Below are positions 6,548 to 24,000 of a stretch of DNA of 24,000 nt, piece by piece. Each line of letters begins with the position of its first letter. Within the stretch, counting starts at the first letter, position 1. Origin of the DNA: Candidatus Methanophagales archaeon (lineage in GTDB: Archaea > Halobacteriota > Syntropharchaeia > Alkanophagales > Methanospirareceae); assembly GCA_024699715.1 (NCBI GenBank), contig JANPRD010000012.1, positions 10,605-34,604 of the forward strand, given 5' to 3'. Below the pieces are notes generated by a model that saw only the letters and a list, made by a program, of their open reading frames with translations, was not told the origin of the DNA and made no database searches. Both the position numbers and the translations under genes were made by a program.

Positions 6548-6826
6548 ATGCTTGACGAGTTAGAATCTTGGCTCCTCGTAGACGAAAATGCAATTTCAAA
6601 ACGCTTGGGGAAAAATGTGAGAGCAGTTCCGAATCCTGAAAGCATACACGACGCAAAGGAATATTTGGAGGAATTATTTGAAGAAGCGTGTGAGAAATAC
6701 TTGACGAAATTTGGAGGGGAGATTGCGAAGTATGTGGATGTGGAGAAATTGAAAGGTAAGTGTGCATCTTTTGCGGATTTTGAGGGGATGGTAAGGAATG
6801 GTAATGTCAGAAGAAGAGATGCATGA
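6548..6826 (+). pseudogene. 5'-truncated relic of a DUF4276/Toprim-like gene (C-terminal 88 residues only)
   Basis: The 92-aa ORF aligns with residues about 95-184 of ORF 18191..18745 (ELESWLL.DENAIS..NPESIHDAKEYLE..KCASFADFE.MVRNGNVRRRDA), about 78% identical by hand count. The N-terminal part carrying the acidic E and DxD motifs is missing. Confidence 0.7.
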
Positions 6827-7268
6827 GCAGCAGCAAGAGTGGGAGAAGAGCAGGAGGCGAGAGTCGCTGCTTGAGGAATTTTTGCGACCTTCGCATGTGT
6901 TTGCGGTAGTCGGTGCGACGCCGAAGCGAGAGAAATACGGCTACAAGATTTTCAAGAGCCTGAAGGAGGCGGGCTACAAGGTGTATGCGGTGAATCCGAA
7001 CCACGAGGAGATTGAGGGAGAGCGTTGCTACGCATCCTTGAGCGAGCTGCCTGAGAAGCCGGATGTCGTTGACATCGTTGTTCCTCCAGCGGTAACAGAG
7101 CAAATTGTGCGTGAGGCTCACCGCCTCGGCATCAAAAAAATATGGATGCAGCCCGGTGCGGAGAGCGAAGAAGCGATAAAATTCTGCGAAGAGCATGGAA
7201 TATCCGTCATTCACGGTCTCTGCGTCATGCTTGAATCCTTGCGTGCAGCGAGAAAGCGAGAGATATGA
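6798..7268 (+). CDS. CoA-binding domain protein (YccU/YneT-like, CoA_binding_2), copy 1
   Basis: 156 aa. HVFAVVGATPKREKYGYKIFKSLKEAGYKVYAVNPNHEEIEG..CY.SL.ELPEKPDVVDIVVPP is the typical pattern of this family. Confidence 0.85.
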   Translation: MVMSEEEMHEQQQEWEKSRRRESLLEEFLRPSHVFAVVGATPKREKYGYKIFKSLKEAGYKVYAVNPNHEEIEGERCYASLSELPEKPDVVDIVVPPAVTEQIVREAHRLGIKKIWMQPGAESEEAIKFCEEHGISVIHGLCVMLESLRAARKREI

Positions 7269-7292
7269 AAGGCAAAATTGCAACGAAAAGAA

Positions 7293-7565
7293 ATGCGAAA
7301 TGCAGTGGATGAGAAAGAAAAAATGGAAGCACGAGTGAAGAAGGACATCGCCCTTTTTGAGGAGAACTTTTCAAAGATTGAGCGGGTGAGAGCCCCTGAA
7401 GACGCAAAAACGATTGAACTTGCGAGGGCATACTGCGAAGATGCGAAGTTTTACCTTGAAAAAGGCGACTTATTCACCGCTTTCGGTTGCATTAACTACG
7501 CTCACGGTCTTTTAGACGCTGTGAGAATGCGTAAGGAATTCGCTGGTGAGAATAGAAGAGAGTAG
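7293..7565 (+). CDS. Small helical protein, DUF357-like, copy 1
   Basis: ORF 7278..7565 opens on TTG; the first ATG is at 7293. The motif AR.Y.EDAKFYLEKGDLFTAFGCINYAHGLLDA matches my recollection of archaeal DUF357 proteins. Confidence 0.6.
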   Translation: MRNAVDEKEKMEARVKKDIALFEENFSKIERVRAPEDAKTIELARAYCEDAKFYLEKGDLFTAFGCINYAHGLLDAVRMRKEFAGENRRE

Positions 7566-7588
7566 AGGAGCAGCGAGGAGATTAAAAG

Positions 7589-8597
7589 TTAAGAGCAGAG
7601 TGAGATGCCGAGAAGGAATCCGAGAATCGCCCCTGAGTTCAGGAACGGGAGACCTGCGTGGGGTTTTCCCCTGCCTGCGAAAGTGCAAAGGAGAGCGTAA
7701 CCCGCAAGCGTGCCTGCGACAGAACCGATGGCAGAAGCGAAGGATGCGTAGCGGTATGCGGAGACAGCGAGAATCGCAGGAATAATCGCATCGCCGAGAC
7801 CCATGAAAAATGCTTCTCCACCTCCTAACTCCTGCTGCTCCTTCCCGCTTTCCTGCCCCGCTTTCTCCGCTTTTTCCGCTCTTTCTGCTCTTCCTGCTCG
7901 CCCTTTTGCAGCAAGCAGAGAGAACTTGCGTCTGCGAGGCAAGACGAAAAGTAGGGGGACACGCATCTCCACAACGCTTGATGCGAGCGAGACCATGTGC
8001 TTCGTGCCGTAGACGGAGACAGCGTCGTAGACTGCGAGTATGACAAGTAGGACAATTACAGGTAGAACATTTCAGGGAGATGCCGAAAATTGATGCCACT
8101 CCAGAGGCAACAAGCAATCCAACAGCATCAATAATATACCACTCCGGACGAAAGTAGAGCAGAGCGGTGAGAGCAAGCGCTACAATCAAAGGAAATATTT
8201 GAAGCGATGGAACAAAAGCAACATGGAAAATATTGAGAATGATTGGGATAAGGGCGGAAAGCACCCAATATATTGTTGCAGCGACTGCAAATAGCATGAA
8301 AAGATGCACGAACTTCATGCCGCCGAATTTCAAAATCACGAGAATCGCAGCGGTGAAGCCGAGAACGAGGGCGAAGAAGAAGACTGCGTTAGATACGGAT
8401 TCTGGATTTTCAAACGCCTTCATTCCCGCAGTTTCAAACGGTGCTGCGAGAAGCAACGCAAATACATGCGTGAGAAGCAGGAGCAAGCCCATACCCGCAA
8501 ACGCAAAAACATTCCCACGAGATTCTTCCTCCATATCCTTACCTGAACTTTCCTCAAACGCTTGCATGCGCCTCACACGCCCTCTATTTTTGTCCAT
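7589..8597 (-). pseudogene. Presenilin/signal-peptide-peptidase homologue (A22 intramembrane aspartyl protease), copy 1, frameshifted upstream of the YD motif
   Basis: The N-terminal TM region in ORF 7512..8597 is sensible up to ..ASIFGISL and then turns into Arg/Cys-rich nonsense. The rest (..PVIVLLVILAVYDAVSVYGTKHMVSLASS..EAFFMGLGDAIIPAIL..GLPFLNSGAILGF) lies in the frame of ORF 7589..7996. Copy 2 reads GISLQVLPVIVLLVILAVYD without a break. Confidence 0.8.
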
Positions 8598-8639
8598 CGC
8601 CCGAAGGTGGTGCCCGCTCCCTCCGCCCGCTTCTACCGT

Positions 8640-9554
8640 TTAGATTTTGTTGAAGAAGTGTTTGAGGGTTTTTGCGAGTTCAACGCTGTCCGCCTCTGAA
8701 CGCATCAAAATCTTCGCCTTTAATATTTTGCAACTGCTACTGTGGCGGCATTCGTCCTGCTCGTCAATGACTAAAGCGTCAAGGAAATCCTCGTAGCACT
8801 TCAGAACGCCTTCCGCAGAGACTTCAAAGCCGCATGCTCGCATCAGTGCGGCAGCGGGACCGCTCACGGGTCTTCCACCAATAATTGGCGAGACAGCAAG
8901 CACTTTCTTCTCTTTCAAACGCTCTCTTACGCCTCTGAGGCTCAAAATCGGAGAAATGCTTGTTATCGGATTGCTCGGACCGATAAGCACGAAATCCTCC
9001 TCCTCAAGCAGCTCTTTAAATCTCTCAGAAGGCTGAACACGCTCAACGCCTTCAAATCTGACGCCTCGCACAGAAGGCTTTCCTCTCCGCAGGACCCAGA
9101 AATCCTGAAAGTGCATCTCTCCCTCATCCGTGAGGATTTTCGTTTTCACCGCAGCAGGCTCGTCTGTCATCGGAATGACCTCCGCAGAGATGCCGAAGCG
9201 AGAGGCGAGCATAGAAGTCGCTTCACTCAGCGTCAAACCCCTGCGAAGCATCTCAGAACGAAATATGTGCGTCGCCCTGTCCAAGTCTCCGATTTTCAAT
9301 TTCTCGTCGCATCCGAGCCTCAACAACGCCTCATGCGTTTTGAATGTGTCGTTTCGGATGCCCCACCATCTCTCCTCGTCAATCACGCCTGCGAGAGCGT
9401 AAATCACCGCATCTATGTCTGGGCAGACAAGATTTCCTGAAATCCAAACATCTTCAGCCGTATTTACAACAATCTTTAACTCGCTTTCGGGAAAAATCTT
9501 CTTCATTCCAACAAGCAATTTCGGCGTCCCCGTCCCTCCCGATAGAATTATCAT
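8640..9554 (-). CDS. cofD: 2-phospho-L-lactate transferase (F420 biosynthesis), copy 1
   Basis: 304 aa. MIILSGGTGTPKLL..VVNTAEDVW.SG..VCPD.D.V.YALAG is characteristic of CofD. The start overlaps the stop of the upstream GT4 gene by 4 nt (ATGA). Confidence 0.9.
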   Translation of the reverse strand: MIILSGGTGTPKLLVGMKKIFPESELKIVVNTAEDVWISGNLVCPDIDAVIYALAGVIDEERWWGIRNDTFKTHEALLRLGCDEKLKIGDLDRATHIFRSEMLRRGLTLSEATSMLASRFGISAEVIPMTDEPAAVKTKILTDEGEMHFQDFWVLRRGKPSVRGVRFEGVERVQPSERFKELLEEEDFVLIGPSNPITSISPILSLRGVRERLKEKKVLAVSPIIGGRPVSGPAAALMRACGFEVSAEGVLKCYEDFLDALVIDEQDECRHSSSCKILKAKILMRSEADSVELAKTLKHFFNKI

Positions 9555-10624
9555 CTCAACACACTCTCATAAACATCTAAAGTTTGCTCCGCAACCTTAT
9601 CCCATGTGAAATTCTTCGCCTTCTCTCTCGATAAGCGGCCCATTCGCTCCAAATCCTCCTTCAATATCTCCTCTATTGCCTCCTTTATCTCACGAGCGGA
9701 AGTCCCGCAGAGTATTCCGTTTCCTTGCACATAATATCTGTTGTCGCTCACATCAGACGCAATTATCGGCAGTCCTGATGCCATCGCCTCAAGTATTGTG
9801 ATTGGCTGTGCCTCAAGTTTTGACGGCAAAATGAAAATATCAATACTGCGGTAGAAGGAAGGGGCATCATCTACATATCCCAACACCCTTATCCTCTCAT
9901 TTTCCGCCTTTTTAAGTCGCTTTAACAGCGGACCCGTCCCCGCAATCTTTAAATTTATCCGCCTCCCCTCCAAAATCAGCTTCTTTACCGCTCTCACCAT
10001 GTTCAGCACATTCTTCTCGTGTGAGAGCCTGCCGAGGTAGCCGATGCATATCTCTCTTTCTTCACGACGACCCCCGCAGCAGCCTTCCTCCGCTCCTTCC
10101 TCCGCCGTCTCAAGTTCCCATCTCGGCTTGAATCTCTCAATATCAACGCCGTTCGGAATGACGACCGTCTCTGTCTCGTTGTTGCAATATCGCCGTATTT
10201 CCTCCGCAATCGTCCTCGCTACGGAAATAAATTTCTTTGAGCGTCCTGCGTAGAGAGATGCCAGCGTTCCTATCAAAACACGGGCAAGTTCCCCCTCAAA
10301 ACCCTCCCCTATTTGAATGTGGAATGTGTTGATGACGCTTATTTCGCTGCAAATAGACGAGAATGGCATGAGGAATTCAGAAAATGTCGCCGCATGATGA
10401 ATATGAAGGATGTCAAATCCCCCAATCTCTCGCCTTATTTTCTTCAGAGCGATGTCAAATCCGTATGAGATGCCGCCTTTGTGGTTCCCTACCATTAGGG
10501 AATCAAGCGAGAATTGGTTTATTTTCTTCACCTCGTGTCCCCTGCGTTCAAATTCTTTTGAGAGCGCTTCAACATGCGTTTTTATACCTCCATGCACATT
10601 TCGGTAGTAAAATGCAATTCGCAT
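9551..10624 (-). CDS. Glycosyltransferase family 4 (GT-B fold), copy 1
   Basis: ORF 9551..10672 opens on TTG. The likely start is the ATG at 10624 (MRIAFYYRNVHGGI..), which is shared with copy 2. The C-terminal PSKLEAQPITILEAMASGLPIIASDV is the E-x7-E motif of GT4 enzymes. Confidence 0.85.
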   Translation of the reverse strand: MRIAFYYRNVHGGIKTHVEALSKEFERRGHEVKKINQFSLDSLMVGNHKGGISYGFDIALKKIRREIGGFDILHIHHAATFSEFLMPFSSICSEISVINTFHIQIGEGFEGELARVLIGTLASLYAGRSKKFISVARTIAEEIRRYCNNETETVVIPNGVDIERFKPRWELETAEEGAEEGCCGGRREEREICIGYLGRLSHEKNVLNMVRAVKKLILEGRRINLKIAGTGPLLKRLKKAENERIRVLGYVDDAPSFYRSIDIFILPSKLEAQPITILEAMASGLPIIASDVSDNRYYVQGNGILCGTSAREIKEAIEEILKEDLERMGRLSREKAKNFTWDKVAEQTLDVYESVLR

Positions 10625-10743
10625 TGCACACTCCCACCTCACACACGCTCTCCTTGAATTCAAAACGCTCAACGCTTTTTAAAACTTGCGGGAGTAGAAG
10701 GGCAGAGAAGGGCAAAGAAGAGCAAAAGGTGAGCAAGGGGTAG

Positions 10744-12622
10744 ATGGATATGAGGACTTGGAGCAAGAACCGTGAATTTCTCGCCGTTTCCACGCTTACT
10801 CTCGCATTCTTCTGCCTCGCAGTATTCAATTTAGGCTCTCTCCACATTCCCGATTCATGCTGGCAACCCTCCGCTTTTGCGCATGCCGTCGGGCTTAAGT
10901 GGGACGAGAAGATTGAGGTAATTGTCGCTCTTAATAGCACGCTCAACAGCACGGAGAACGCCGAGAAACTTCACAAAAAACGCACTTAACGGCACTTCTA
11001 CAACACAAGTGGGAGCGATTTACATCTTTCTGAACGATGCGAACACGACAAAATTTGAAGTTTTCGGCAAAGGAGACGGCGTCCAATGGCGGAAACTCCA
11101 CACATACGACAACTCAAAGAGCGTTCATTTCTGCAATTGGGAGCGGATTGCGTTGAACACGAATGCATCCTTCTTGAAGTTCGTTTTTGAGCCTACAGAC
11201 GGGAAAGTAGGGGAGATATTTGTGATTTCGCCGAGAGGCGAGAAGATTAACGCAAGCGTTCGCTATTTCGGTGTCAGCAGCAGTCGCAAAAGCAATAGCA
11301 GAAACGGAAGCGGGGAGTGGAATTTGAGCGGAGTTGCGGACCCGAGAAGGCTTTTTGACGAGCAAGCGCTGGATGTGCCTCTGACGCAAGAGAGCGGTGC
11401 ATATTTTGACGAGATGTATTTTGTGCGAACCGCATGGGAACACATTCACTTCAAAGAGCCTTACGAGTGGACGCATCCCCCGCTCGCCAAGTTAATAATC
11501 GCTGCGGGCATTCTGCTCTTCGGAATGAACCCTTTTGGGTGGCGAATTTTCGGCGTTATTGCGGCGACTGCGATGATTCCTCTCGTATTCGTCCTTGCGA
11601 AGCGCATATTCAGGAGCTCTGCGGGGGCTTTCTTCGCATCCTTCCTGCTCACTTTTGACTTCATGCACTTCACCCTCGCAAGGCTTGCAACAGGCGAAAT
11701 CTTCATCATGCTCTTCTCACTCTTAATGTTCTTTTTCGCTGCATCTTTCATTTTCACCGACAGAGGCATGCGGATATTCAGAAGGAATAATAGTGATTTC
11801 TGCCTGTTCTTAAGCACTGTCTCTTTCGGTTTGTGCTTTGCAGTGAAATGGACAGCATTTTACGGCTTCATCTCTGTTATTGTTCTCGTGCTTCTCACGA
11901 ATTTTTTGCGTCGTGAGCAAATCTTGAATGGCTTCAGAGGTATTTTCGCAGGTTTGCTCGTCTCTTCCGCAATATATATCGCTTCTTACATACCTTATAT
12001 GCTTTGCGGTCATTCCCTCTTTGATGTTTTTCTGCTGCAATTCACGATGTTCGGCTACCACGCAGGCTTAAGAGCGACGCATCCTTTCGCATCGGCGTGG
12101 TGGTCCTGGCCTCTAATGCTGAAGCCGCTTTGGCTCTTCGTGAATCCGCTTGACAGCAAGGTCTCAACAGTGGTTCTGCTCGGAAATCCTGCGATTTGGT
12201 GGGGTGGTCTCGCAGCCATCGCTGCGATTTCTGTCTCTTTCGTTAAAACAAGAAGAGAAAGGAGAAGTGCAGATGCGGGTATTGGCGGGATTGAGTTTGA
12301 AGGGATTGAGTTTGAGGGGAACAAGCGGGAAGTAAAACTCTTCATTTTGCTCCCATTTTTCTTGCAGTGGCTCCCTTTTGCGGCGGTCACGAGAATCCTT
12401 TTCATTTACCACTTCGCCCCGAATGTGCTTTTCTTAGTTCTCGCCCTCGCTTACTGGCTTGACGCCCTCTGGCGAGATTCAACAGCGTCAAAAGGAATAG
12501 TCGTTGCGTTCCTCGTCCTTACAGCGTCGCTCTTCGTCCTTTTCTACCCCGTGATTTCAGGCTTTCCGATTGAAGAGGCATACAGAGAGAGCCTGAAGTG
12601 GCTTCCCAGCTGGATTTTCTGA
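10744..12622 (+). pseudogene. PMT/GT39-family dolichyl-phosphate-mannose protein mannosyltransferase with an N-terminal TM anchor and an extracytoplasmic beta-rich domain, copy 1, frameshifted near 10960
   Basis: ORF 10744..10989 (TM anchor, ..NSTLNSTENAEKLHKKRT*) and ORF 10922..12622 (..NFTKNALNGTSTTQVGAIYIF..DEMYFVRTAWEHIHFKEPYEWTHPPLAKL.., multi-TM) are in different frames. Copy 2 reads ..NSTENARNFTKNALNSTSTTQVGAIYIF.. in one frame. The copy offset changes from 11932 to 11931 across this site. Confidence 0.8.
12287..12316. repeat. 2 x 15-bp tandem repeat (gggattgagtttgaR) encoding GIEFEGIEFEG in a PMT loop
   Basis: Seen directly in the sequence and in the translation ..GIGGIEFEGIEFEGNKRE.. 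Confidence 0.8.
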
Positions 12623-12728
12623 GAGAGAGCGAGGGTTGCGTGATGTCGTCTCACTGTCTCACTTTGTCCCCATTTCATTCGCACCTTAAATCTTATAGTG
12701 GGGGTTATGCATGCTAAATGCAATAGTA

Positions 12729-12738
12729 TTTATATAAA
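12729..12738 (+). promoter_or_regulatory. Candidate archaeal TATA box (tttatataaa) for the 12773 gene
   Basis: Near-consensus TTTATATA sits about 35 nt upstream of the ATG at 12773. A purine-rich aggagggtgaggggg stretch (SD-like) lies between them. Confidence 0.4.
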
Positions 12739-12772
12739 GAATGTGGAATAAGGAGGGTGAGGGGGTGGTAGT

Positions 12773-13057
12773 ATGGCGAAGATAAGTATAGAGGCGGATT
12801 CGTTGGAGGAGGTTCGGGAGATATTGAGGGAGAAGCCGAGATTTCCGGAGGGTTTAGTCCCGCTGGTGCAGGACATAGAGCGGGTGCTTGAGGCGGTTGA
12901 GCGTGCGAAGTCAGAAGACCCGAGGGGGCGTGCGAAGCGTAAGATAGCGGAATATGCTGGTATTAGGGATGCTGCAAAGGTCGGCGAGATTCTGCGTTTG
13001 CTTGAGCGACACCGCATCGTTCAGCGAGAATCCAGAGGCAGATGGAAAACGATTTGA
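12773..13057 (+). CDS. Small putative winged-helix DNA-binding protein (94 aa)
   Basis: The ORF has an ATG start, a TATA box and an SD-like element. The C-terminal IAEYAGIRDAAKVGEILRLLERHRIVQRESRGRW looks like helix-turn-helix plus wing. I recognise no family. Confidence 0.55.
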   Translation: MAKISIEADSLEEVREILREKPRFPEGLVPLVQDIERVLEAVERAKSEDPRGRAKRKIAEYAGIRDAAKVGEILRLLERHRIVQRESRGRWKTI

Positions 13058-13065
13058 GCGCCGCT

Positions 13066-13113
13066 CTCTTTTATTTTTTCCAATTTTTCCGTTTCCAATT
13101 TTTCCGATTTTTT
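13066..13113 (+). terminator. Oligo-T terminator region containing a 15-bp-period direct repeat (ttccaatttttccg x2)
   Basis: T-runs sit directly after the stop at 13057 (cttttatttttt, then T5, T5, T6). Repeat units are at 13078-13091 and 13093-13106. Archaeal termination typically uses oligo-T tracts. Confidence 0.4.
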
Positions 13114-13130
13114 GCTCGCAGAAGCGAAGG

Positions 13131-13139
13131 TTTATTTTT
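13131..13139 (+). promoter_or_regulatory. Candidate TATA-like box (tttattttt) for the 13169 gene
   Basis: An A/T box lies 30 nt upstream of the ATG at 13169. Confidence 0.3.
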
Positions 13140-13168
13140 GAGGGGTGTGAATAAAAGAAGAGGATAGA

Positions 13169-13744
13169 ATGGCGGAGGAAGAAGGAGGATTCTTTGCGAT
13201 TGAAAACGACGATGTGGCGACGCAGGCGCAGATTAAAAAGATTTATGCCCTTTTACATCGGCTCGGAAAGGACCCGCAGAAATTCAAGGAGGAAAGAGGT
13301 TTCACGAACTACGCAAAACTGACGAAGAGGCAGGCATCAGAGCTTATTGACGAGCTTGAGCGGGAGGAGTTCAGAAAAATAGAGGAGGAAGTGAAGGCAA
13401 AAGCGGAACAAACCTCTGTGGTAGAAACGCAGCAGGCACCGTCCCAACCGATACAACAGATACAACAGACACAACAGGCACAACAGGCACAACAGACCAC
13501 GAATGCAAGGGAGAGCGTGGCACAGGAAGCAGTTGAGCTTCGGCGAGAAGCGTTGGTAAAGGAGGCGGAGGAGGTTGCTCGTGCTGCGAGATTAATGCGT
13601 AGGTGCGTGAGCGAGGCGAAGCGGATTGTGGAGGAGGAGATGCCTTTCGTCGTGAGCGAGGCGATAAAGGCAAAAACTATCGGCTCAATCGCCGCAACTC
13701 TATTCATTCAACTTGAAAGCAGGAGCTATCGGTGGGAAGAGTAA
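13169..13744 (+). CDS. Hypothetical protein (191 aa) with an N-terminal ATQAQIKKIYALL..LTKRQASELIDEL module, a Q-rich repeat and a charged helical C-terminus
   Basis: The ORF has an ATG start. The N-terminal module resembles small DUF3072-type domains (assignment from memory, low certainty). The central IQQIQQTQQAQQAQQ is encoded by the 9-bp repeat. Confidence 0.55.
   Translation: MAEEEGGFFAIENDDVATQAQIKKIYALLHRLGKDPQKFKEERGFTNYAKLTKRQASELIDELEREEFRKIEEEVKAKAEQTSVVETQQAPSQPIQQIQQTQQAQQAQQTTNARESVAQEAVELRREALVKEAEEVARAARLMRRCVSEAKRIVEEEMPFVVSEAIKAKTIGSIAATLFIQLESRSYRWEE
13451..13495. repeat. 5 x 9-bp imperfect tandem repeat (RyAcaacag) encoding (I/T/A)QQ
   Basis: Units atacaacag, atacaacag, acacaacag, gcacaacag, gcacaacag read directly from the sequence. 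Confidence 0.85.
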
Positions 13745-17015: not shown

Positions 17016-17098
17016 TTTCTCACCCCCGCTTCTCTCGCTCTCTTCTCTTGCTACCCCCTTTTAACTTTCCCTCTGCCACCCATACATTTCTCCTTCTA

Positions 17099-17108
17099 CT
17101 TATAATTT
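17099..17108 (+). promoter_or_regulatory. A/T-rich TATA-like element (ttataattta) in the thermosome/ATPase divergent intergenic region
   Basis: This is the only strong A/T box between 17016 and 17114. It lies only about 7-16 nt from the TTG start at 17115, so either the true start or TSS is further downstream or this box serves another purpose. Confidence 0.25.
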
Positions 17109-17114
17109 AAGCGT

Positions 17115-18194
17115 TTGGAAGTGCGAAACTACAAGAGTTTGAGGGCTGTCAAAGTGCGATTTGAGCAGTTTAATGTCCTCGTCGGCTTGAACGCAAGCGG
17201 AAAGAGCAACATCATTGACTGCCTCTCGCTTGTCTCCGAAAGTCTGCAAGTTTTCGGCAACATCTCGCAAATCCTTAAGCGAAGAGGAGGATTTAAGCAT
17301 GTAGTATTTCAAGGCGAGGAGGAATTTGATGTGAAAGTGGCTTTCTCTGTCGGGAAAAATAAGTGCGAATATTACATGAAAGCAACAGAGGAAGAAATAG
17401 AAGAAAGATGGTTGAAAATTAATGGGAAGAATTTCATTCAACAGCAGAAAGGAGATGGAAAGTATCTTACAGAGGACTATTCGGAGGTTAAATTAGATAG
17501 GGAATGGGAAAGACTTGCTGCCAGACGACATCTTAAGTGTGCGAAAGAAATTTCGGAATGCTTGGATTACTTGAGCAAGTGGCATTTTTACAGTTTTTCA
17601 ACGCCTGAAATCCGAAGGACGCTGCCTGCGAAGAAGAGTTTTGCTCTCAAGCGGGACGGAAGCAACTTGGCTCAAGTCTTACTTTCACTGCGGACGGAGA
17701 GACCGAAGATTTTCGCTGAAATTGAAGAGATGTTGAAACTCGCAATTCCTGATGTGGAGGAGCTTTTGACGCCTCTTACTGAGGGAGGAGAAACATTTGT
17801 GGCAGTAAGGGAGAAGGGTTTTGAGCATCCTTTTGACTACTACCAACTTTCAGATGGCACTTTGAGACTGCTCGCACACATAACTGCGTTGAATTTGGAT
17901 GCGGAATTGGTGTGTTTTGAGGAGCCGGAGAATTTTGTGCATCCTTATTTACTGCGTTTACTCGTTGAAGTCTTAAAGAAGAGCGGGAAACAGGTGATTC
18001 TCTCAACGCATTCTCCATATTTCTTGGATTTCGTGGAGCCAGAGGATTTAATAATCGTGGAAAAGAAGCGAGGAGAGACGAAAGTGAGGAGGATAGAGGA
18101 TGAAGAAGAGAAGAATAGGGTAAGAAAGCTTTTAGAAGATGGAATACCGCTTGGGGAAGTATATTATAGTGGTGCGTTGAGTGGTGAAGAATGA
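17115..18194 (+). CDS. ABC/SMC-type AAA ATPase (AAA_21 / OLD-N-terminal-like), no transporter partner
   Basis: 359 aa. Walker A: GLNASGKS (17184-17207). Signature-like: YQLSDGTLRLL. Walker B: LVCFEEPE (17907-17930). Also QVILSTHSP. The start codon is uncertain (TTG at 17115, GTG at 17121). The gene is AT-rich. Confidence 0.85.
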   Translation: MEVRNYKSLRAVKVRFEQFNVLVGLNASGKSNIIDCLSLVSESLQVFGNISQILKRRGGFKHVVFQGEEEFDVKVAFSVGKNKCEYYMKATEEEIEERWLKINGKNFIQQQKGDGKYLTEDYSEVKLDREWERLAARRHLKCAKEISECLDYLSKWHFYSFSTPEIRRTLPAKKSFALKRDGSNLAQVLLSLRTERPKIFAEIEEMLKLAIPDVEELLTPLTEGGETFVAVREKGFEHPFDYYQLSDGTLRLLAHITALNLDAELVCFEEPENFVHPYLLRLLVEVLKKSGKQVILSTHSPYFLDFVEPEDLIIVEKKRGETKVRRIEDEEEKNRVRKLLEDGIPLGEVYYSGALSGEE

Positions 18195-18745
18195 AGAAAG
18201 TGGGGTTAGTTGTTGAAGATAAGCATACAGAAGCGATAAAAGAGATAGGCAAAAAGCTCGGTATTAAGCCTATAATTAGGAGGCAAAGAGGTAGAATAAA
18301 TGTGCGGAAGGCATCTGCTTTTGCGAATGAATTACTTAGAAGTTGCGAGAAAGTGATAATTCTTGGGGATGCTGACTGCAACGAGGAGGGGGAGCGAGAG
18401 AGACTTCAGAGAATCTACGAGCATCTTCCTGAAGGGTTGAGAGAGCGTGTTCACATTTGCATTATTGTTCACGAATTGGAATCTTGGCTCCTCGCAGACG
18501 AAAATGCAATTTCAAGAGTCTTAGGGAAAAATGTGAAACCGGTACAGAATCCTGAAAGCATACACGACGCAAAGGAATATTTGGAGGGATTGTTTGAAGA
18601 AGGAGGCGAGAAAAACTTAACGAACTTGCTGGCAGGGGAGATTGCGAAGCATGTGAATGTGGAGAAATTGAGGGAAAAGTGTGCATCTTTTGCGGATTTT
18701 GAGAGGATGGTAAGGAATGGTAATGTCAGAAGAAGAGATGCATGA
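18191..18745 (+). CDS. Toprim-like protein, DUF4276-type (putative nuclease partner of the ATPase)
   Basis: 184 aa. The ATG overlaps the ATPase stop (ATGA). Motifs are GLVVED (acidic strand), VIILGDADC (DxD) and IIVHELESWLLADE. The DUF4276 assignment is from memory of that family's ELESW-type motif. Confidence 0.75.
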   Translation: MKKVGLVVEDKHTEAIKEIGKKLGIKPIIRRQRGRINVRKASAFANELLRSCEKVIILGDADCNEEGERERLQRIYEHLPEGLRERVHICIIVHELESWLLADENAISRVLGKNVKPVQNPESIHDAKEYLEGLFEEGGEKNLTNLLAGEIAKHVNVEKLREKCASFADFERMVRNGNVRRRDA

Positions 18746-19187
18746 GCAGCAGCAAGAGTGGGAGAAGAGTAGGAGGCGAGAATCACTGCTTGAGGAATTT
18801 TTGCGACCTTCGCATGTGTTTGCGGTAGTCGGTGCGACGCCGAAGCGAGAGAAATACGGCTACAAGATTTTCAAGAGCCTGAAGGAGGCGGGCTACAAGG
18901 TGTATGCGGTGAATCCGAACCACGAGGAGATTGAGGGTGAGCGTTGCTACGCATCCTTGAGCGAGCTGCCTGAGAAGCCGGATGTCGTTGACATCGTTGT
19001 TCCTCCAGCGGTAACAGAGCAAATTGTGCGTGAGGCTCACCGCCTCGGCATCAAAAGAATATGGATGCAGCCCGGTGCGGAGAGCGAAGAAGCGATAAAA
19101 TTCTGCGAAGAGCATGGAATATCTGTCATTCACGGTCTCTGCGTCATGCTTGAATCCTTGCGTGCAGCGAGAAAGCGAGAGATATGA
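18717..19187 (+). CDS. CoA-binding domain protein, copy 2
   Basis: 156 aa, differing from copy 1 at one residue (GIKKIW versus GIKRIW). Confidence 0.85.
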   Translation: MVMSEEEMHEQQQEWEKSRRRESLLEEFLRPSHVFAVVGATPKREKYGYKIFKSLKEAGYKVYAVNPNHEEIEGERCYASLSELPEKPDVVDIVVPPAVTEQIVREAHRLGIKRIWMQPGAESEEAIKFCEEHGISVIHGLCVMLESLRAARKREI

Positions 19188-19211
19188 GAGGCAAAATTGC
19201 AACGAAAAGAA

Positions 19212-19511
19212 ATGCGAAATGCGGTGGATGAGAAAGAAAAAACGGAAGCACGGGTGAAGAAGGACATCGCTCTTTTTGAGGAGAACTTTTCAAAGATTGA
19301 GCAAGTGAGAGACCCTGCAGACGCAAAAACGATTGAACTTGCGAGGGCATACTGCGAAGATGCGAAGTTTTACCTTGAAAAAGGCGACTTATTCACCGCT
19401 TTCGGTTGCATTAACTACGCTCACGGTCTTTTAGACGCTGTGAGAATGCGTAAGGAATTCGCTGGGGAGAATAGAAGAGAGCAGAGGAGCAGCAAGAAGC
19501 TTAAAAGTTAA
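19212..19511 (+). CDS. DUF357-like small protein, copy 2 (C-terminal extension of 9 aa)
   Basis: Same as copy 1 with about 4 substitutions. Copy 1 stops after ..ENRRE, whereas copy 2 reads on as ..ENRREQRSSKKLKS. Its 3' end therefore overlaps the convergent presenilin-like gene. Confidence 0.6.
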   Translation: MRNAVDEKEKTEARVKKDIALFEENFSKIEQVRDPADAKTIELARAYCEDAKFYLEKGDLFTAFGCINYAHGLLDAVRMRKEFAGENRREQRSSKKLKS

Positions 19512-20528
19512 GAGCCGAGTGAGACGCCGAGAAGGAATCCGAGAATCGCCCCTGAGTTCAGGAAAGGGAGACCTGCGTGGGGCTTTCCCCTGCCTGCGAA
19601 AGTGCAAAGGAGAGCGTAACCCGCAAGCGTGCCTGCGACAGAACCGATGGCAGAAGCAAAGGATGCGTAGCGGTATGCTGAGACTGCGAGAATCGCAGGA
19701 ATAATCGCATCGCCGAGACCCATGAAAAATGCTTCTCCACCTCCTAACTCCTGCTGCTCCTTTCCGCCTTCCTGCCCCGCTTTCTCCGCTTTTTCCGCCC
19801 GCTCTTTCTGCTCTTCCTGCTCGCCCTTTTGCAGCACCCACTTTAAGCAGAGAGAACTTGCGTCTGCGAGGCAAGACGAAAAGTAGGGGAACACGCATCT
19901 CCACAACGCTTGATGCGAGCGAGACCATGTGCTTCGTGCCGTAGACGGAGACAGCGTCGTAGACTGCGAGTATGACAAGTAGGACAATTACAGGCAGAAC
20001 TTGCAGGGAGATGCCGAAAATTGATGCCACTCCAGAGGCAACAAGCAATCCAACAGCATCAATAACATACCACTCCGGACGAAAGTAGAGCAGAGCGGTG
20101 AGAGCAAGCGCCACAATCAAAGGAAATATATCAAGCGCTGGAACGAAAGCAACATGGAAAATATTGAGAATGATTGGAACGAAGGCGGAAAGCACCCAAT
20201 ATATTGTCGCAGCGACTGCAAATAGCATGAAAAGATGCACGAACTTCATGCCGCCGAATTTCAAAATCACGAGAATCGCAGCGGTGAAGCAGAGAACGAG
20301 GGCGAAGAAGAAGACTGCGTTAAATACGGATTCTGGATTTTCAAACGCCTTCATTCCCGCAGTTTCAAACGGTGCTGCGAGAAGCAACGCAAAGACATGC
20401 GTGAGAAGCAGGAGCAAGCCCATACCCGCAAACGCAAAAACATTCCCACGAGATTCTTCCTCCACATCCTTACCTGAACTTTCCTCAAACGCTTGCATGC
20501 GCCTCACACGCCCTCTATTTTTGTCCAT
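19508..20528 (-). pseudogene. Presenilin/SPP homologue, copy 2, frameshifted in the cytosolic loop between the YD and GLGD motifs
   Basis: ORF 19431..20528 carries the N-terminus through ..AVYDAVSVYGTKHMVSLASS..RRRKFSLLKVGAAKGRAGRAERA and then becomes nonsense. The segment ..ELGGGEAFFMGLGDAIIPAIL.. lies in the frame of ORF 19508..19987. Relative to copy 1 there is a roughly 4-nt insertion near 19796-19801 and an in-frame 9-nt insertion near 19837-19845. Confidence 0.8.
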
Positions 20529-20571
20529 CGCCCGAAGGTGGTGCCCGCTCCCTCCGCCCGCTCGCTACCGC

Positions 20572-21486
20572 TTAGATTTTGTTGAAGAATTGTTTGAGGG
20601 TTTTTGCGAGTTCAACGCTGTCCGCCTCTGAACGCATCAAAATCTTCGCCTTTAATATTTTGCAACTGCTACTGTGGCAGCATTCGTCCTGCTCGTCAAT
20701 GACTAAAGCGTCAAGGAAATCCTCGTAGCACTTCAGAACGCCTTCCGCAGAGACTTCAAAGCCGCATGCTCGCATCAGTGCAGCAGCGGGACCGCTCACG
20801 GGTCTTCCACCAATAATTGGCGATATTGCAATAACTTTCTTCTCTTTCAAACGCTCTCTTACGCCTCTGAGGCTCAAAATCGGAGAAATGCTTGTTATCG
20901 GATTGCTCGGACCGATAAGCACGAAATCCTCCTCCTCAAGCAGCTCTTTAAATCTCTCAGAAGGCTGAACACGCTCAACGCCTTCAAATCTGACGCCTCG
21001 CACAGAAGGCTTTCCTCTCCGCAGGACCCAGAAATCCTGAAAGTGCATCTCCCCCTCATCCGTGAGGATTTTCGTTTTCACCGCAGCAGGCTCGTCTGTC
21101 ATCGGAATGACCTCCGCAGAGATGCCGAAGCGAGAGGCGAGCATAGAAGTCGCTTCACTCAGCGTCAAACCCCTGCGAAGCATTTCAGAACGAAATATGT
21201 GCGTCGCCCTGTCCAAGTCGCCAATTTTCAGTTTCTCGTCGCATCCAAGCCTTAACAAAGCGGAATGCGTTTTGAATGTGTCGTTTCGGATGCCCCACCA
21301 TCTCTCCTCGTCAATCACGCCTGCGAGAGCGTAAATCACCGCATCTATGTCTGGGCAGACAAGATTGCCTGAAATCCAAACATCTTCAGCCGTATTTACA
21401 ACAATCTTTAACTCGCTTTCGGGAAAAATCTTCTTCATTCCAATAAGCAATTTCGGCGTTCCCGTCCCTCCCGATAGAATTATCAT
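20572..21486 (-). CDS. cofD: 2-phospho-L-lactate transferase, copy 2
   Basis: 304 aa, with about 6 substitutions relative to copy 1. Confidence 0.9.
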   Translation of the reverse strand: MIILSGGTGTPKLLIGMKKIFPESELKIVVNTAEDVWISGNLVCPDIDAVIYALAGVIDEERWWGIRNDTFKTHSALLRLGCDEKLKIGDLDRATHIFRSEMLRRGLTLSEATSMLASRFGISAEVIPMTDEPAAVKTKILTDEGEMHFQDFWVLRRGKPSVRGVRFEGVERVQPSERFKELLEEEDFVLIGPSNPITSISPILSLRGVRERLKEKKVIAISPIIGGRPVSGPAAALMRACGFEVSAEGVLKCYEDFLDALVIDEQDECCHSSSCKILKAKILMRSEADSVELAKTLKQFFNKI

Positions 21487-22556
21487 CTCAACACACTCTC
21501 ATAAACATCTAAAGTTTGCTCCGCAACTTTATCCCATGTGAAATTCTTCGCCTTCTCTCTTGATAAGCGACCCATTCGCTCCAAATCCTCCTTCAATATC
21601 TCCTCTATTGCCTCCTTTATCTCACGAGCGGAAGTCCCGCAGAGTATTCCGTTCCCTTGCACATAATATCTGTTGTCGCTCACATCTGAAGCAATTATCG
21701 GCAGTCCTGATGCCATCGCCTCAAGTATTGTGATTGGCTGTGCCTCAAGTTTTGACGGCAAAATGAAAATATCAATACTGCGGTAGAATGAAGGTGCATC
21801 ATCTACATATCCCAACACCCTTATCCTCTCATTTTCCGCCCTTTTAAGTCGCTTGAACAGCGGACCTGTCCCCGCAATCCTTAAATTTATCCGCTTCCCC
21901 TCCAAAATCAGCTTCTTTACCGCTCTCACCATGTTCAGCACATTCTTCTCGTGTGAGAGCCTGCCGAGGTAGCCGATGCATATCTCTCCTTCTTCACGAC
22001 GCCCCCCGCAGCAGCCTTCCTCCGCTCCTTCCTCCGCCGTCTCAAGTTCCCATCTCGGCTTGAATCTCTCAATATCAACGCCGTTCGGAATGACGACCGT
22101 CTCTGTCTCGTTGTTGCAATATCGCCGTATTTCCTCCGCAATCGTCCTCGCCACGGAAATAAATTTCTTTGAGCGTCCTGCGTAGAGAGATGCGAGCGTT
22201 CCTATCAAAACACGGGCAAGTTCCCCCTCAAAACCCTCCCCTATTTGAATGTGGAATGTGTTGATTACGCTTATTTCACTGCAAATAGATGAGAATGGCA
22301 TGAGAAATTCTGAAAATGTCGCCGCATGATGAATATGAAGGATGTCAAAACCCTCAATCTCACGCCTTATTTTCTTCAGAGCGATGTCAAATCCGTATGA
22401 GATGCCGCCTTTGTGGTTTCCTACCATTAAGGAATCAAGCGAGAATTGGTTTATTTTCTTCACCTCGTGTCCTCTGCGTTCAAATTCTTTTGAGAGCGCT
22501 TCAACATGCGTTTTTATACCTCCATGCACATTTCGGTAGTAAAATGCAATTCGCAT
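21483..22556 (-). CDS. Glycosyltransferase family 4, copy 2
   Basis: ORF 21483..22724 is open further upstream, but the conserved start MRIAFYY maps to 22556. It has about 7 substitutions relative to copy 1. Confidence 0.85.
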   Translation of the reverse strand: MRIAFYYRNVHGGIKTHVEALSKEFERRGHEVKKINQFSLDSLMVGNHKGGISYGFDIALKKIRREIEGFDILHIHHAATFSEFLMPFSSICSEISVINTFHIQIGEGFEGELARVLIGTLASLYAGRSKKFISVARTIAEEIRRYCNNETETVVIPNGVDIERFKPRWELETAEEGAEEGCCGGRREEGEICIGYLGRLSHEKNVLNMVRAVKKLILEGKRINLRIAGTGPLFKRLKRAENERIRVLGYVDDAPSFYRSIDIFILPSKLEAQPITILEAMASGLPIIASDVSDNRYYVQGNGILCGTSAREIKEAIEEILKEDLERMGRLSREKAKNFTWDKVAEQTLDVYESVLR

Positions 22557-22675
22557 TGCACACTCCCACCCACACACGCTCTCCTTGAATTCAAAACGCT
22601 CAACGCTTTTTAAAACTTGCGGGAGTAGAAGGGCAGAGAAGGACAGAGAAGAGCAGAAGGTGAGGCAAGGGGTAG

Positions 22676-24000
22676 ATGGATATGAGGACTTGGAGCAAGA
22701 ACCGTGAATTTCTCGCCGTTTCAACGCTCACTCTCGCATTCTTCTGCCTCGCAGTATTCAATTTGGGCTCTCTCCACATTCCTGACTCATGCTGGCAACC
22801 CTCCGCTTTTGCGCATGCCGTCGGGCTTAAGTGGGACGAGAAGATTGAGGTAATTGTCGCTCTTAACAGCACGCTCAACAGCACGGAGAACGCCAGAAAC
22901 TTCACAAAAAACGCACTTAACAGCACTTCTACAACACAAGTGGGAGCGATTTACATCTTTCTGAGCGATGCGAACACGACAAAATTTGAAGTTTTCGGCA
23001 AAGGAGACGGCGCCCAATGGCGGAAACTCCACACATACGACAACTCAAAGAGCGTTCATTTCTGCAATTGGGAGCGGATTGCGTTGAACACGAACGCATC
23101 CTTCTTGAAGTTCGTTTTTGAGCCTACAGACGGGAAAGTAGGGGAAATATTTGTGATTTCGCCGAGAGGCGAGAAGATTAACGCAAGCGTTCGCTATTTC
23201 GGTGTCAGCAGCAGTCGCAAAAACAGCAAAAACGAGAGCAAGGAGGAGTGGAATTTGAGCGGAGTTGCGGACCCGAGAAGGCTTTTTGACGAGCAAGCGC
23301 TGGATGTGCCTCTGACGCAAGAGAGCGGTGCGTATTTTGACGAGATGTATTTTGTGCGAACCGCATGGGAGCATATTCACTTTAAAGAGCCTTACGAGTG
23401 GACGCATCCTCCGCTCGCCAAGTTAATAATCGCTGCGGGCATTCTGCTCTTCGGAATGAACCCTTTTGGGTGGCGAATTTTTGGCGTTATTGCGGCGACT
23501 GCGATGATTCCTCTCGTATTCATCCTTGCGAAGCGCATATTCAGGAGCTCTGCGGGAGCTTTCTTCGCTTCCTTCCTGCTCACTTTTGACTTCATGCACT
23601 TCACGCTCGCAAGACTTGCAACAGGCGAAATCTTCATCATGCTCTTCTCACTCTTAATGTTCTTTTTCGCTGCATCTTTCATTTTCGCCGACAAAGGCAT
23701 GCGGATATTCGGAAGGAATAATAGTGATTTCTGCCTGTTCTTAAGCACTGTCTCTTTCGGTTTGTGCTTTGCAGTGAAATGGACAGCATTTTACGGCTTC
23801 ATCTCTGTTATTGTTCTCGTGCTTCTCACGAATTTTTTGCGTCGTGAGCAAATCTTAAGAGGCTTCAGAGGTATTTTCGCAGGTTTGCTCGTCTCTTCCG
23901 CAATATATATCGCTTCTTACATACCTTATATGCTTTGCGGTCATTCCCTCTTTGATGTTTTTCTGCTGCAATTCACGATGTTCGGCTACCACGCAGGCTT
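22676..24000 (+). CDS. PMT/GT39-family mannosyltransferase with N-terminal anchor and beta-rich domain, copy 2, intact as far as the window edge (partial)
   Basis: My translation from the ATG at 22676 stays open to 24000: MDMRTWSKNREFLAVSTLTLAFFCLAVF..NSTENARNFTKNALNSTSTTQVGAIYIFLSDANTTKFEVFG..DEMYFVRTAWEHIHF... The ORF track lists no counterpart of the 81-aa stub seen in copy 1, as expected for an open frame running off the edge. Confidence 0.8.
   Translation, partial: MDMRTWSKNREFLAVSTLTLAFFCLAVFNLGSLHIPDSCWQPSAFAHAVGLKWDEKIEVIVALNSTLNSTENARNFTKNALNSTSTTQVGAIYIFLSDANTTKFEVFGKGDGAQWRKLHTYDNSKSVHFCNWERIALNTNASFLKFVFEPTDGKVGEIFVISPRGEKINASVRYFGVSSSRKNSKNESKEEWNLSGVADPRRLFDEQALDVPLTQESGAYFDEMYFVRTAWEHIHFKEPYEWTHPPLAKLIIAAGILLFGMNPFGWRIFGVIAATAMIPLVFILAKRIFRSSAGAFFASFLLTFDFMHFTLARLATGEIFIMLFSLLMFFFAASFIFADKGMRIFGRNNSDFCLFLSTVSFGLCFAVKWTAFYGFISVIVLVLLTNFLRREQILRGFRGIFAGLLVSSAIYIASYIPYMLCGHSLFDVFLLQFTMFGYHAG

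Follow-up and report, generated by a model that had tools for sequence, protein, structure and literature searches.

A stretch of 24,000 nucleotides (the window) from an 82,742-bp metagenome-derived contig of the methane-oxidising archaeon Candidatus Methanospirare jalkutatii (ANME-1c) contains two copies, each of approximately 10.55 kb and separated by 1.36 kb, of a segment extending from the 3' half of a DUF4276 gene to the thermosome gene, and the first copy sits as an insertion within a hypervariable RM/defence hotspot. We favor, with evenly balanced confidence, the explanation that the contig represents a real merodiploid state of one Ca. M. jalkutatii chromosome.

Anatomy and extent of the repeat

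Self-BLAST aligned positions 6552-12069 with 18468-24000 as a single colinear direct repeat of 96.55% identity (one HSP of 5,539 alignment columns, with 164 mismatches and 11 gaps), a similarity far beyond chance. The original prediction of two copies in direct orientation is thus borne out, and its finer observations also hold, including the offsets between paired ORFs (11,919-11,932), the small number of protein differences (1 in the CoA-binding protein, about 6 in CofD and about 6 nonsynonymous in GT4), the differing left flanks of the two copies, and the continuation of copy 2 past the window. The right end of the alignment, 12069/24000, is simply the window edge (24000-11931) and marks no true repeat boundary. 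Outside the window, the same contig encodes further copies of TldD (P0141, differing at 2 of 459 aa), of the Q-rich protein (P0156) and of PMT (P0194, full length), and the copies must therefore span at least about 10.5 kb on either side of a spacer of 1,361 nt (17111-18471), a near-tandem layout with a period of about 11.9 kb. The earlier views that the copies are not in tandem and that the 5.9 kb of DNA between them is unique were both artefacts of the window edge. Similarly, the label of a cofD/membrane-glycosylation cluster misses the key anatomy, namely a precise insertion of 10,555 nt after nucleotide 8 of an ATPase gene. The start of the repeat is intragenic, with DUF4276 full-length only at copy 2 (Table 1).

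Table 1. Features of the window, in order of position
Feature	Position	Strand	Basis or remark
Conserved left flank 'A'	1299..3001		DUF2119 1299-1949 (+), IF-2B-family 1925-3001 (-); Pfam, synteny
Type IIG RM gene	3140..6416	+	Pfam N6_Mtase/Eco57I
HEC-01A-type ATPase, first 8 nt	6548..6555	+	ATGCTTGA; left side of junction J1 (6555/6556)
Copy 1, inserted block of 10,555 nt	6556..17110		Self-BLAST, Pfam, in-silico deletion
DUF4276 3' half, copy 1	6556-6826	+	In-frame fusion to 8-nt ATPase stub
CoA-binding, copy 1	6798-7268	+	Pfam
DUF357, copy 1	7278-7565	+	Pfam
SPP/presenilin, copy 1	7589-8597	-	+1 frameshift near 8069
CofD, copy 1	8640-9554	-	Pfam
GT4, copy 1	9551-10624	-	Pfam
PMT/GT39, copy 1	10744-12622	+	+1 G frameshift at 10963
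94-aa gene, copy 1	12773-13057	+
Q-rich gene, copy 1	13169-13744	+
TldD/PmbA, copy 1	13893-15272	-
Thermosome, copy 1	15354-17015	-	Upstream region reaches 17109
Junction J2	17109..17111		Thermosome upstream DNA ends ...CTTATAATTTA at 17109
HEC-01A-type AAA_21 ATPase gene without first 8 nt	17111..18194	+	Pfam AAA_21/AAA_15
Full-length DUF4276 (HEC-01B-type)	18191..18745	+	Pfam DUF4276 profile positions 34-189
Copy 2, visible part	18472..24000		Begins with DUF4276 3' half (from 18472)
CoA-binding, copy 2	18717-19187	+
DUF357, copy 2	19197-19511	+
SPP, copy 2	19508-20528	-	-5 nt frameshift near 19800
CofD, copy 2	20572-21486	-
GT4, copy 2	21483-22556	-
PMT-2, copy 2	from 22676	+	Runs off window; intact 625 aa on contig

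Comparison of the copied genes against six relatives revealed frameshifts in both copies. SPP carries one in each copy. The PMT of copy 1 is frameshifted and that of copy 2 intact, and Q-rich shows the reverse, with a frameshifted form of 118 aa in copy 2 that lies beyond the window between the intact PMT-2 and TldD-2; of DUF4276, copy 1 has a truncated form and copy 2 the intact gene. The approximately six single-copy relatives are in frame at every lesion site compared, and the contig carries five private frameshifts in all. Whichever reading of the contig holds, there is nothing unusual in the biology of the duplicated genes.

Junctions of the inserted block

In related contigs the ATPase gene begins with ATGCTTGA followed directly by GCGTTTGGAAG, the intact junction sequence without insertion being ATGCTTGAGCGTTTGG. 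Here the gene is divided: at J2, the thermosome upstream DNA gives way to an ambiguous A at 17110 and then to the ATPase gene from its nucleotide 9 (GCGTTTGG...) at 17111, with no Ns, gap, overlap scar or duplicated k-mer overlap in the J2 sequence. At the same thermosome-upstream position, contigs L170 and L171 run ...TTATAATTTA and then CGCATCAGTGG in place of J2. The longest remaining ATPase ORF uses a TTG start at 17115, and the N-terminus MLERLEVRNYK, kept in all 23 related ATPase proteins, is truncated solely in this contig's gene. When 6556-17110 is deleted in silico, the ATPase gene becomes an intact 363-aa ORF and the sequence aligns colinearly in one piece with haplotype L161, an arrangement that occurs in other contigs; J1 and J2 are consequently the two sides of one conservative insertion. 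The junctions differ in their distribution: J1 is a common population allele, present in four independent contigs from four samples (L082, L175-177), while J2 was found in this contig alone, being absent from the 23 related ATPases and from the two independent thermosome-upstream contigs. The ATPase-side boundary of the block also falls exactly on the base where haplotypes that contain the 1.36 kb ATPase/DUF4276 segment begin to differ from those that lack it; the end of copy 2 lies outside the window.

The interrupted ATPase and the adjacent DUF4276 gene, which overlap by 4 nt, match HEC-01A (3e-63) and HEC-01B (6e-13), respectively, in PADLOC, and on these profile matches the pair qualifies as a HEC-01 candidate defence system of putative defence function. 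Upstream lies an RM gene in which a +1 (C) frameshift close to 4510, seen relative to L082, separates ORFs 3140-4555 and 4482-6416. The gene is intact in other contigs (1091-1100 aa), where the intact allele scores 1164 bits over the whole REase_MTase_IIG profile (PADLOC), and its predicted product is of Type IIG, a single polypeptide with REase, N6-MTase and specificity domains. The 628-aa RM fragment is identical, with the same start codon, on an independent JGI contig, which suggests that the contig's frameshifts are real alleles rather than consensus noise. Additionally, the tract 3005-7200 shows almost no difference from L082, against about 3% divergence in its flanks, which shows that the RM+J1 allele moves by recombination. 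In relatives lacking the RM gene, flank 'A' abuts the ATPase gene directly (synteny compared in L165, L172/L173, L178 and L179).

Divergence of the copies and population haplotypes

The two copies (R1 and R2) differ from one another as co-occurring strains of the species do, and both haplotypes exist separately in other samples: the full type in L161, and the J1 type in L082 and L175-177. Private differences in a three-way comparison of L082, R1 and R2 number 84/101/73, a star-like pattern in which neither copy is nearer to the other than to a third strain; copies made recently in place should be nearest to one another. Consistent with this pattern, the DUF4276 parts fall into different population allele classes (88% versus 94-100% identity), the 3' halves being 12% different where neighbouring genes differ by 2.4%, and the dN/dS of 0.19 between copies (dS 0.067) reflects purifying selection during divergence. 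Together these three observations oppose a recent in-place duplication and trace the two copies to two strains. Of the alternatives originally offered, the recent segmental duplication is thus not supported, while the proposal of two closely related strains was right as to the source of the copies.

Variation at the locus is not confined to this contig. The RM gene between IF-2B and the ATPase is present or absent by strain, ATPase/DUF4276 deletion alleles and two DUF4276 classes circulate, and every other long contig of the species has a single local copy. Private coding changes number 42 in copy 1 and 10 in copy 2, and the case for relaxed constraint on copy 1 is weak, with p = 0.027 within R1 and p = 0.19 versus other lineages.

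Origin of the duplication

According to the merodiploid explanation, the ancestral locus would have run IF-2B, Type IIG RM, ATPase, DUF4276 and CoA-binding, and onward to PMT, the 94-aa gene, Q-rich, TldD and thermosome. The ATPase gene would have been broken behind its nucleotide 8, and 10,555 nt copied from the adjoining DNA, between mid-DUF4276 and a point immediately upstream of the thermosome gene, would have been inserted there, possibly by DNA fragment capture or by microhomology-mediated template switching that returned to the break. This single event would generate both J1 (ATPase nucleotides 1-8 joined to the DUF4276 3' half) and J2 (thermosome upstream DNA joined to ATPase nucleotide 9), leaving two direct copies of about 10.55 kb lying 1.36 kb apart and disabling the ATPase start. 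The 3.5% difference may have arrived with an insert from another strain, or may reflect later independent recombination of each copy with the population pool. Homologous pop-out between the copies would leave the very J1 deletion allele that the population commonly carries, and redundancy would account for the breakage of PMT in copy 1 only and of Q-rich in copy 2 only. The layout of the copies, the exact junctions, the haplotypes of the population and the allele-like divergence are shown by the sequences; we infer, with the same reserve as for the merodiploid, that J2 exists in a cell, that a break followed by insertion produced it, and that the duplication came first and the J1 allele second.

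Support for a merodiploid comes from the sharing of one ATPase boundary (nucleotides 8 and 9) by J1 and J2, which would be an unexplained coincidence had the junctions arisen separately, and from J2 being a clean join with 1 nt of ambiguity. Furthermore, R1 and R2 have seven identical runs of at least 127 nt in common, so that their de Bruijn graph would be not one simple bubble and would contain no edge from the thermosome end to the ATPase; standard assemblers would therefore need J2-containing reads. Copy 2 carries on through PMT-2, Q-rich-2 and TldD-2 as the model predicts, the lesions of the two copies are complementary, and J1 is real and widespread. Set against these points are the restriction of J2 to one contig, the single-copy state of other long contigs, and copies that are diverged like co-occurring strains. 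The junction coordinates are also the points at which haplotypes diverge, such that an artefact would look equally precise; the breakage of SPP in both copies is unexplained by redundancy; the support for relaxed constraint on copy 1 is weak; and one other assembly of the species, discussed below, has the region twice.

The strongest rival, to which we assign a probability clearly short of even, is a false (heterotype) duplication made during assembly, in which two strain branches were written in series, J2 was never in a cell and each strain has a single copy. One strain would carry the RM gene, the 8 nt and the DUF4276 3' half onward, the other the RM gene, ATPase and DUF4276 onward, and an assembly, scaffolding or curation step would have produced the shared RM side, both branches in turn and the shared downstream DNA. 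The equality of inter-copy and inter-strain divergence, the independent occurrence of both component haplotypes in other samples, the position of the ATPase-side boundary at the first base separating them, and the uniqueness of J2 are all as expected of such an artefact, as is its location in a strain-variable defence hotspot, where assembly graphs break; five private frameshifts would likewise suit a noisy mixed-strain consensus. MAGs of the species were built by 11-50 map-and-reassemble rounds, or by LRScaf with MDA-Nanopore reads (PMC9894754), and one genome scaffolded with MDA-Nanopore reads, FWG175 (CP110382.1, 1.63 Mb; PMC9894754), has the region twice, at 68-89 kb and 1,069-1,090 kb. 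The same genes are present twice in that assembly, in a region running from DUF498 via IF-2B, ATPase, DUF4276, CofD and PMT as far as the thermosome; however, the FWG175 copies are inverted, at least 21 kb long, 1 Mb apart and 99.54% identical, and both have the simple arrangement with no RM, J1 or J2. This double region hints at a hotspot that assemblies tend to duplicate; if the present contig is an artefact, the 'complete' reference genome of the species, which has the same region twice, merits the same check.

Against an assembly origin, standard de Bruijn or overlap assemblers do not make a blunt join of two graph branches without reads, J2 has none of the Ns, k-mer overlap scar or gap that might betray one, and a random chimeric read or MDA chimera would miss the exact ATPase nucleotide 9. 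The first strain would, in addition, have to be a viable single-copy strain with PMT and SPP both frameshifted, and the second would have to carry broken SPP and Q-rich, although all other sampled haplotypes are in frame there. Complementary gene lesions are not predicted by an artefact, and the RM fragment matching an independent contig argues against a generally poor consensus.

Returning to the merodiploid, a more ambitious form of it can be put forward only tentatively, as a proposal we doubt more than we believe: a live duplication-resolution cycle at the defence hotspot, in which a one-step insertion of a 10.6 kb allelic block, possibly from another strain, at a break in the ATPase gene is followed by recombination between the copies to give the J1 allele that circulates with the RM gene in at least four samples. 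If so, strain exchange and illegitimate recombination would inactivate defence genes and transiently double housekeeping genes such as cofD and thermosome in ANME-1.

An old in-place tandem duplication within one lineage, which mutated to 3.5% before its first unit lost the ATPase/DUF4276 5' part through homologous import of the circulating RM+J1 allele, appears improbable. The near-tandem layout with its 11.9 kb period, the mobility of the RM and J1 allele seen in the L082-like tract, and the long private branch of copy 1 (42 coding changes versus 10) fit this history. It requires, however, two independent illegitimate events at the same ATPase nucleotide, and initially identical 10 kb direct repeats would be lost quickly, long before reaching a dS of 0.067. 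Among other strains diverged by that much or less, none has the duplication, the copies are not mutual closest relatives, and the DUF4276 difference of 12% beside neighbours at 2.4% is one of allele class rather than clock-like decay; the data lean, moreover, to related genomes less than 3% diverged that lack J2, with R1 and R2 in different population clades.

Duplication by a mobile element (a composite transposon, integrating element or IS-driven event) is essentially refuted by the lack of element ends or a recombinase at J1 and J2, notwithstanding TnpB/IS605-OrfB-type insertions inside the locus in another strain (L081/L101) and a left side formed by a defence island whose RM gene moves between strains: the window has no inverted repeats of at least 40 nt, no tRNA genes found and no integrase or transposase domains in its ORFs (Pfam), the L081 IS elements have no homology to the window and target sites unlike the junctions, and the block ends show no target-site duplication beyond 1 nt.

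Implications and comparison with known systems

If real, the contig is a rare nucleotide-resolved large merodiploid in an uncultured ANME-1 archaeon, one in which the turnover of a defence island would be coupled to a temporary doubling of core genes (cofD of F420 biosynthesis, thermosome, glycosylation genes) and which would suggest that strains exchange DNA. As an artefact, it would warn that strain-variable defence hotspots can yield seamless false duplications in MAGs, with gene counts, CheckM 'contamination' and the extent of apparent paralogy all raised as a result.

Heterotype (haplotype) false duplications, in which divergent or structurally heterozygous alleles are both kept in series, are known from vertebrate assemblies. 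The present case resembles them in its allele-level divergence, in a block that starts at the 1.36 kb indel where haplotypes part, and in a strain-variable locus whose linking junction is without independent support; it differs in deriving from a microbial population rather than a diploid, in its seamless join and in its complementary lesions. Bacterial tandem duplications and merodiploids, as studied in Salmonella and E. coli, form by illegitimate or microhomology joins and are lost by RecA-type recombination. Shared with these are direct, near-tandem copies of about 10 kb, a single novel join with 0-1 nt of microhomology, and a predicted instability whose predicted collapse product, the J1 allele, is seen in the population. 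The contig is not, however, a simple head-to-tail repeat, in that its first unit lacks the 1.36 kb ATPase/DUF4276 5' part and a more apt description is a conservative insertion that placed a copy 1.36 kb upstream of the source segment. Its copies are 3.5% diverged, in contrast to the identity expected of new duplicates.

Templated or captured insertions at double-strand breaks, which arise by MMBIR, synthesis-dependent end joining or fragment capture, similarly involve one target point, no loss or gain of target bases, 1 nt of microhomology and copying of nearby DNA. The insert here is, in contrast, very large (10.6 kb) and was probably derived from, or converted by, another strain's allele; we know of no insertion of this kind documented for ANME archaea. 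Lastly, Zhou et al. (2026; PMC13385816) describe structural variants at the strain level in ANME-1, in defence genes of the R-M and toxin-antitoxin types. Although that work concerns R-M/TA in cold-seep ANME-1 and includes neither this locus nor a HEC-01-like pair or 10 kb housekeeping duplication, the variants it describes, like those of the hotspot analysed here, involve RM and other defence genes.

Extent of the repeat

Self-comparison of the window returned a single colinear direct match between 6552-12069 and 18468-24000, 5,539 alignment columns long and 96.55% identical (164 mismatches, 11 gaps); the similarity is far above chance and the repeat is real. The ORF offsets and protein-difference counts of the original prediction are correct, while other parts of its description require revision. 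Specifically, the right end at 12069/24000 is only the window edge, the left end falls within the DUF4276 gene rather than between genes, and the 5.9 kb described as unique DNA is not unique, as the same contig encodes second TldD, Q-rich and PMT (GT39) proteins outside the window. The latter were recognized in cluster listings, which hide the proteins encoded in the window and display others of the 82,742-bp NCBI contig, whose proteins include MCU4140706.1 and MCU4140708.1 (locus tags MW690_...); these listings also place two GT4 proteins on it. Because of these additional proteins, the duplicated unit includes all of 6556-17110 (copy 1), with copy 2 starting at 18472 and running past the window end. 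The gap between the copies consists solely of a 1,361-nt segment holding the ATPase gene and the 5' part of DUF4276 (17111-18471), and the layout is near-tandem, with a period of ~11.9 kb.

L083, considered as a copy-2-type contig that might reveal the DNA past copy 2, is uninformative, because within PMT it resembles neither copy more than the other. The minus-strand 'wHTH gene' proposed at 12730-13017 lacks a Pfam hit and is absent from the protein collection; the ORF annotated in relatives is an overlapping plus-strand ORF of 94 aa (12773-13057), and a 94-aa member of its cluster is located on this contig.

Duplicated genes, frameshifts, insertions and related duplicates (L-numbers, related contigs or loci; P-numbers, proteins from cluster listings)
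Feature	Location	Detail
Second TldD	P0141, same contig, outside window	2/459 residues differ
Second Q-rich protein (copy 2)	P0156, same contig, outside window	frameshift within Q repeat (CAA/CAG), cut to 118 aa
Second PMT, full-length	P0194, same contig	625 aa; listed beside two fragments of frameshifted PMT-1
PMT copy 1 frameshift		+1 G, at 10963
RM frameshift	window 3140-6416, near 4510	+1 C
SPP copy 1 frameshift	window 7589-8597	+1, near 8069, before YD motif
SPP copy 2 frameshift	window 19508-20528	-5 nt, loop repeats between YD and GLGD catalytic motifs
TnpB-type insertions	L081 174-1456, 3490-4886; L101 111-1379	window equivalents ~10678, ~12703
FWG175 copies	L172, CP110382.1 68,293-89,420; L173, 1,069,267-1,090,394	inverted, ~1 Mb apart

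Structure of the junctions

In every relative, the ATPase gene starts ATGCTTGA|GCGTTTGGAAGTGCGAAAC. At the left junction (J1, 6555|6556), ATGCTTGA (6548-6555) is joined in frame with the 3' half of DUF4276 (CGAGTTAGAATCTTGG...), and at the right junction (J2, ~17110) thermosome-upstream DNA ends ...CTTATAATTTA at 17109 and, following one ambiguous A, the ATPase picks up at 17111 (GCGTTTGG...). In two independent contigs whose thermosome is identical to that of the window (L170, L171), ...TTATAATTTA is followed by unrelated DNA, CGCATCAGTGG... In-silico removal of 6556-17110 (10,555 nt) yields both an intact 363-aa ATPase ORF (MLERLEVRNYK...) and one colinear alignment with the haplotype of the related contig L161; copy 1 therefore acts as a perfectly conservative insertion after ATPase nucleotide 8, and copy 2 sits in the native context. 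The ORF at 6548-6826 aligns to DUF4276 profile positions 99-188 only, and the full-length DUF4276 gene (18191-18745) spans the copy-2 boundary, its partner AAA_21 ATPase lying directly before it.

The same 92-aa J1 fusion ORF, without any difference, is found in four contigs from four samples, which makes J1 a genuine and common allele; the two of these contigs that reach upstream (L174, L175) both have an intact Type IIG restriction-modification (RM) gene before the fusion ORF. J2 was found nowhere else: all 23 of 23 related ATPase sequences have a full N-terminus, the truncation occurring only in this contig.

Population context and the defence hotspot

Relatives at 92-98% nucleotide identity are plentiful in hydrothermal metagenomes and MAGs, and the proteins of close relatives carry the name Candidatus Methanospirare jalkutatii, an ANME-1c archaeon. 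In the long contigs of this species the gene order is DUF2119, IF-2B, ATPase, DUF4276, CoA-binding, DUF357, SPP (a presenilin-type signal peptide peptidase), CofD, GT4, PMT, the 94-aa gene, Q-rich, TldD and thermosome. One local arrangement is present in each of L165 (57 kb contig), L178 (173 kb contig), L179 and L172/L173, the called genes of L178 and L179 having the expected full lengths.

The left side of the block is a variable defence hotspot; structural variants in restriction-modification and toxin-antitoxin defence genes have been reported for ANME-1 (PMC13385816). In some contigs (L161, and those with N-terminally extended ATPase calls) an RM gene of 1091 aa lies between IF-2B and ATPase, and the ATPase/DUF4276 pair matches the HEC-01 candidate system (PADLOC). 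The 3' half of DUF4276 (6556-6826 / 18472-18745; L161-L168) falls into two allele classes ~15% apart, the adjacent CoA-binding gene differing by only 2-3%, a split resembling the outcome of diversifying or balancing selection acting on a gene for defence.

Further variation is seen nearby. L161 (3766-13445; ERZ1742239 NODE_3291) matches the window at 97-98% identity from the RM 3' end through ATPase, DUF4276, CoA-binding and DUF357 to SPP, where homology stops inside the 5' end (window equivalent 8525/20456) and unrelated genes follow (SSO2105_N, ABC ATPase, His_biosynth, CobN, Mg-chelatase); the switch marks a further rearrangement, or a further chimera, at the locus. Window 1-692 and 697-2980 match L172 4784-5475 and 7682-9963, and therefore ~2.2 kb of an LTD/NosD/beta-helix/SNase surface-protein gene, repeat-rich and of strain-variable length (922 vs 1163 aa), is missing from the window relative to CP110382.1. 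That genome, the single-scaffold 'complete' Ca. Methanospirare jalkutatii FWG175, holds at least 21 kb of this region twice, the two copies differing by 67 mismatches and 9 gaps (99.54% identity); since it was built by LRScaf with MDA-amplified Nanopore reads (PMC9894754), its second copy may be a scaffolding duplication.

Gene lesions

When this contig was compared with six relatives, the frameshifts listed in the table were private to it. The RM gene, inactivated here by its +1 C, is carried whole (1091-1101 aa) by over 10 other contigs, and the 628-aa RM fragment recurs identically on an independent 2,270-bp JGI contig (P0253), which suggests that the RM lesion is real and also a circulating allele. 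SPP is in frame in 6/6 relatives compared; in copy 2 its N- and C-terminal halves are now separate ORFs, and the loop between the motifs is variable. The window's Q-rich copy has 191 aa, as in relatives. One intact copy thus remains of PMT, one of Q-rich and none of SPP.

Private coding changes number 42 in copy 1 and 10 in copy 2. Relaxed selection on copy 1 was considered as proof of redundancy and rejected: the shift towards nonsynonymous change in SPP and PMT, with 8 S / 12 N as opposed to 17 S / 5 N in the other genes, is suggestive within R1, the compared part of copy 1 (p = 0.027), but falls short of significance when these two genes are compared with those of other lineages (p = 0.19).

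Origin of the two copies

For the ATPase position 8|9 shared by J1 and J2, only two kinds of explanation fit, an insertion event and serial assembly. We favor the former, at roughly even chances: a single biological insertion event would have produced J1 and J2 together, and the J1 allele would have arisen afterwards through recombination between the copies. Consistent with such an event, J2 is seamless, copy 2 extends in the predicted way, the lesions in the two copies complement each other and the RM lesion is independently corroborated. Additionally, seven stretches of 127 nt or more are identical between R1 and R2 (the compared parts of the two copies), and there is no edge from the thermosome-side end of the block to the ATPase, such that no assembly-graph path could make J2. 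A k-1 'bubble scar' test, based on the distance from the last population variant to J2, was set aside: variants lie ~35 nt from J2, a distance matching no standard k, and the test is valid only with the end of copy 2, which lies beyond the window.

A serious possibility, if short of an even chance, is that an assembly or scaffolding step placed two alternative strain branches in series. ATPase position 8|9 is the exact start of the difference between haplotypes lacking the ATPase and DUF4276 5' part (J1-type) and those with the full pair; each type exists separately, J2 is unique to this contig, and the locus is a hotspot (PMC13385816). Genomes of the species were assembled by 11-50 map-and-reassemble rounds, or with LRScaf and MDA-Nanopore reads (PMC9894754), and FWG175 (CP110382.1) also holds the region twice. 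The divergence of the copies points the same way. L082 (a contig from a different sample with IF-2B, RM, J1 and repeat in colinear order), R1 and R2 are about equidistant from one another across the repeat (private differences 84/101/73 for L082/R1/R2). The R1 DUF4276 half is of the alpha class, 100% identical to that of L082, the R2 half is beta-like or mosaic, and dN/dS between R1 and R2 is 0.19 (0.05-0.13 for CoA-binding, CofD and GT4). Together these data make the 3.5% divergence allele-like; it did not build up neutrally following an in-place duplication, and an old duplication of this kind is improbable. Between 3005 and 7200 hardly any differences separate L082 from the window, against ~3% divergence on either side, and the RM and J1 tract therefore spreads by recombination.

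Mobile-element mediation is the least credible account, as inverted repeats, tRNAs, recombinases and target-site duplications are all absent. Integrases were likewise not found in the window, discounting a mobile-element or provirus origin; the IS elements of L081 use other target sites and left no trace in the window, and a common 'TTNA' cleavage motif at three breakpoints was judged post hoc. A further strain has two unrelated insertions of TnpB/IS605-OrfB type (ORFs of 391 and 383 aa), the first separating GT4 from PMT and the second immediately downstream of PMT; the contigs with the first (L081, L101) come from a single common sample.

Comparison with known systems

The duplicated genes (cofD, GT4, PMT/GT39, presenilin-type SPP, TldD, thermosome) are ordinary. 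What is neat about the structure is its exact junction logic and its link with a circulating defence-gene deletion allele. A real structure would behave in the manner of the classical merodiploids of bacteria or of a templated insertion, and an artefactual one in that of a heterotype false duplication; both kinds are already known.
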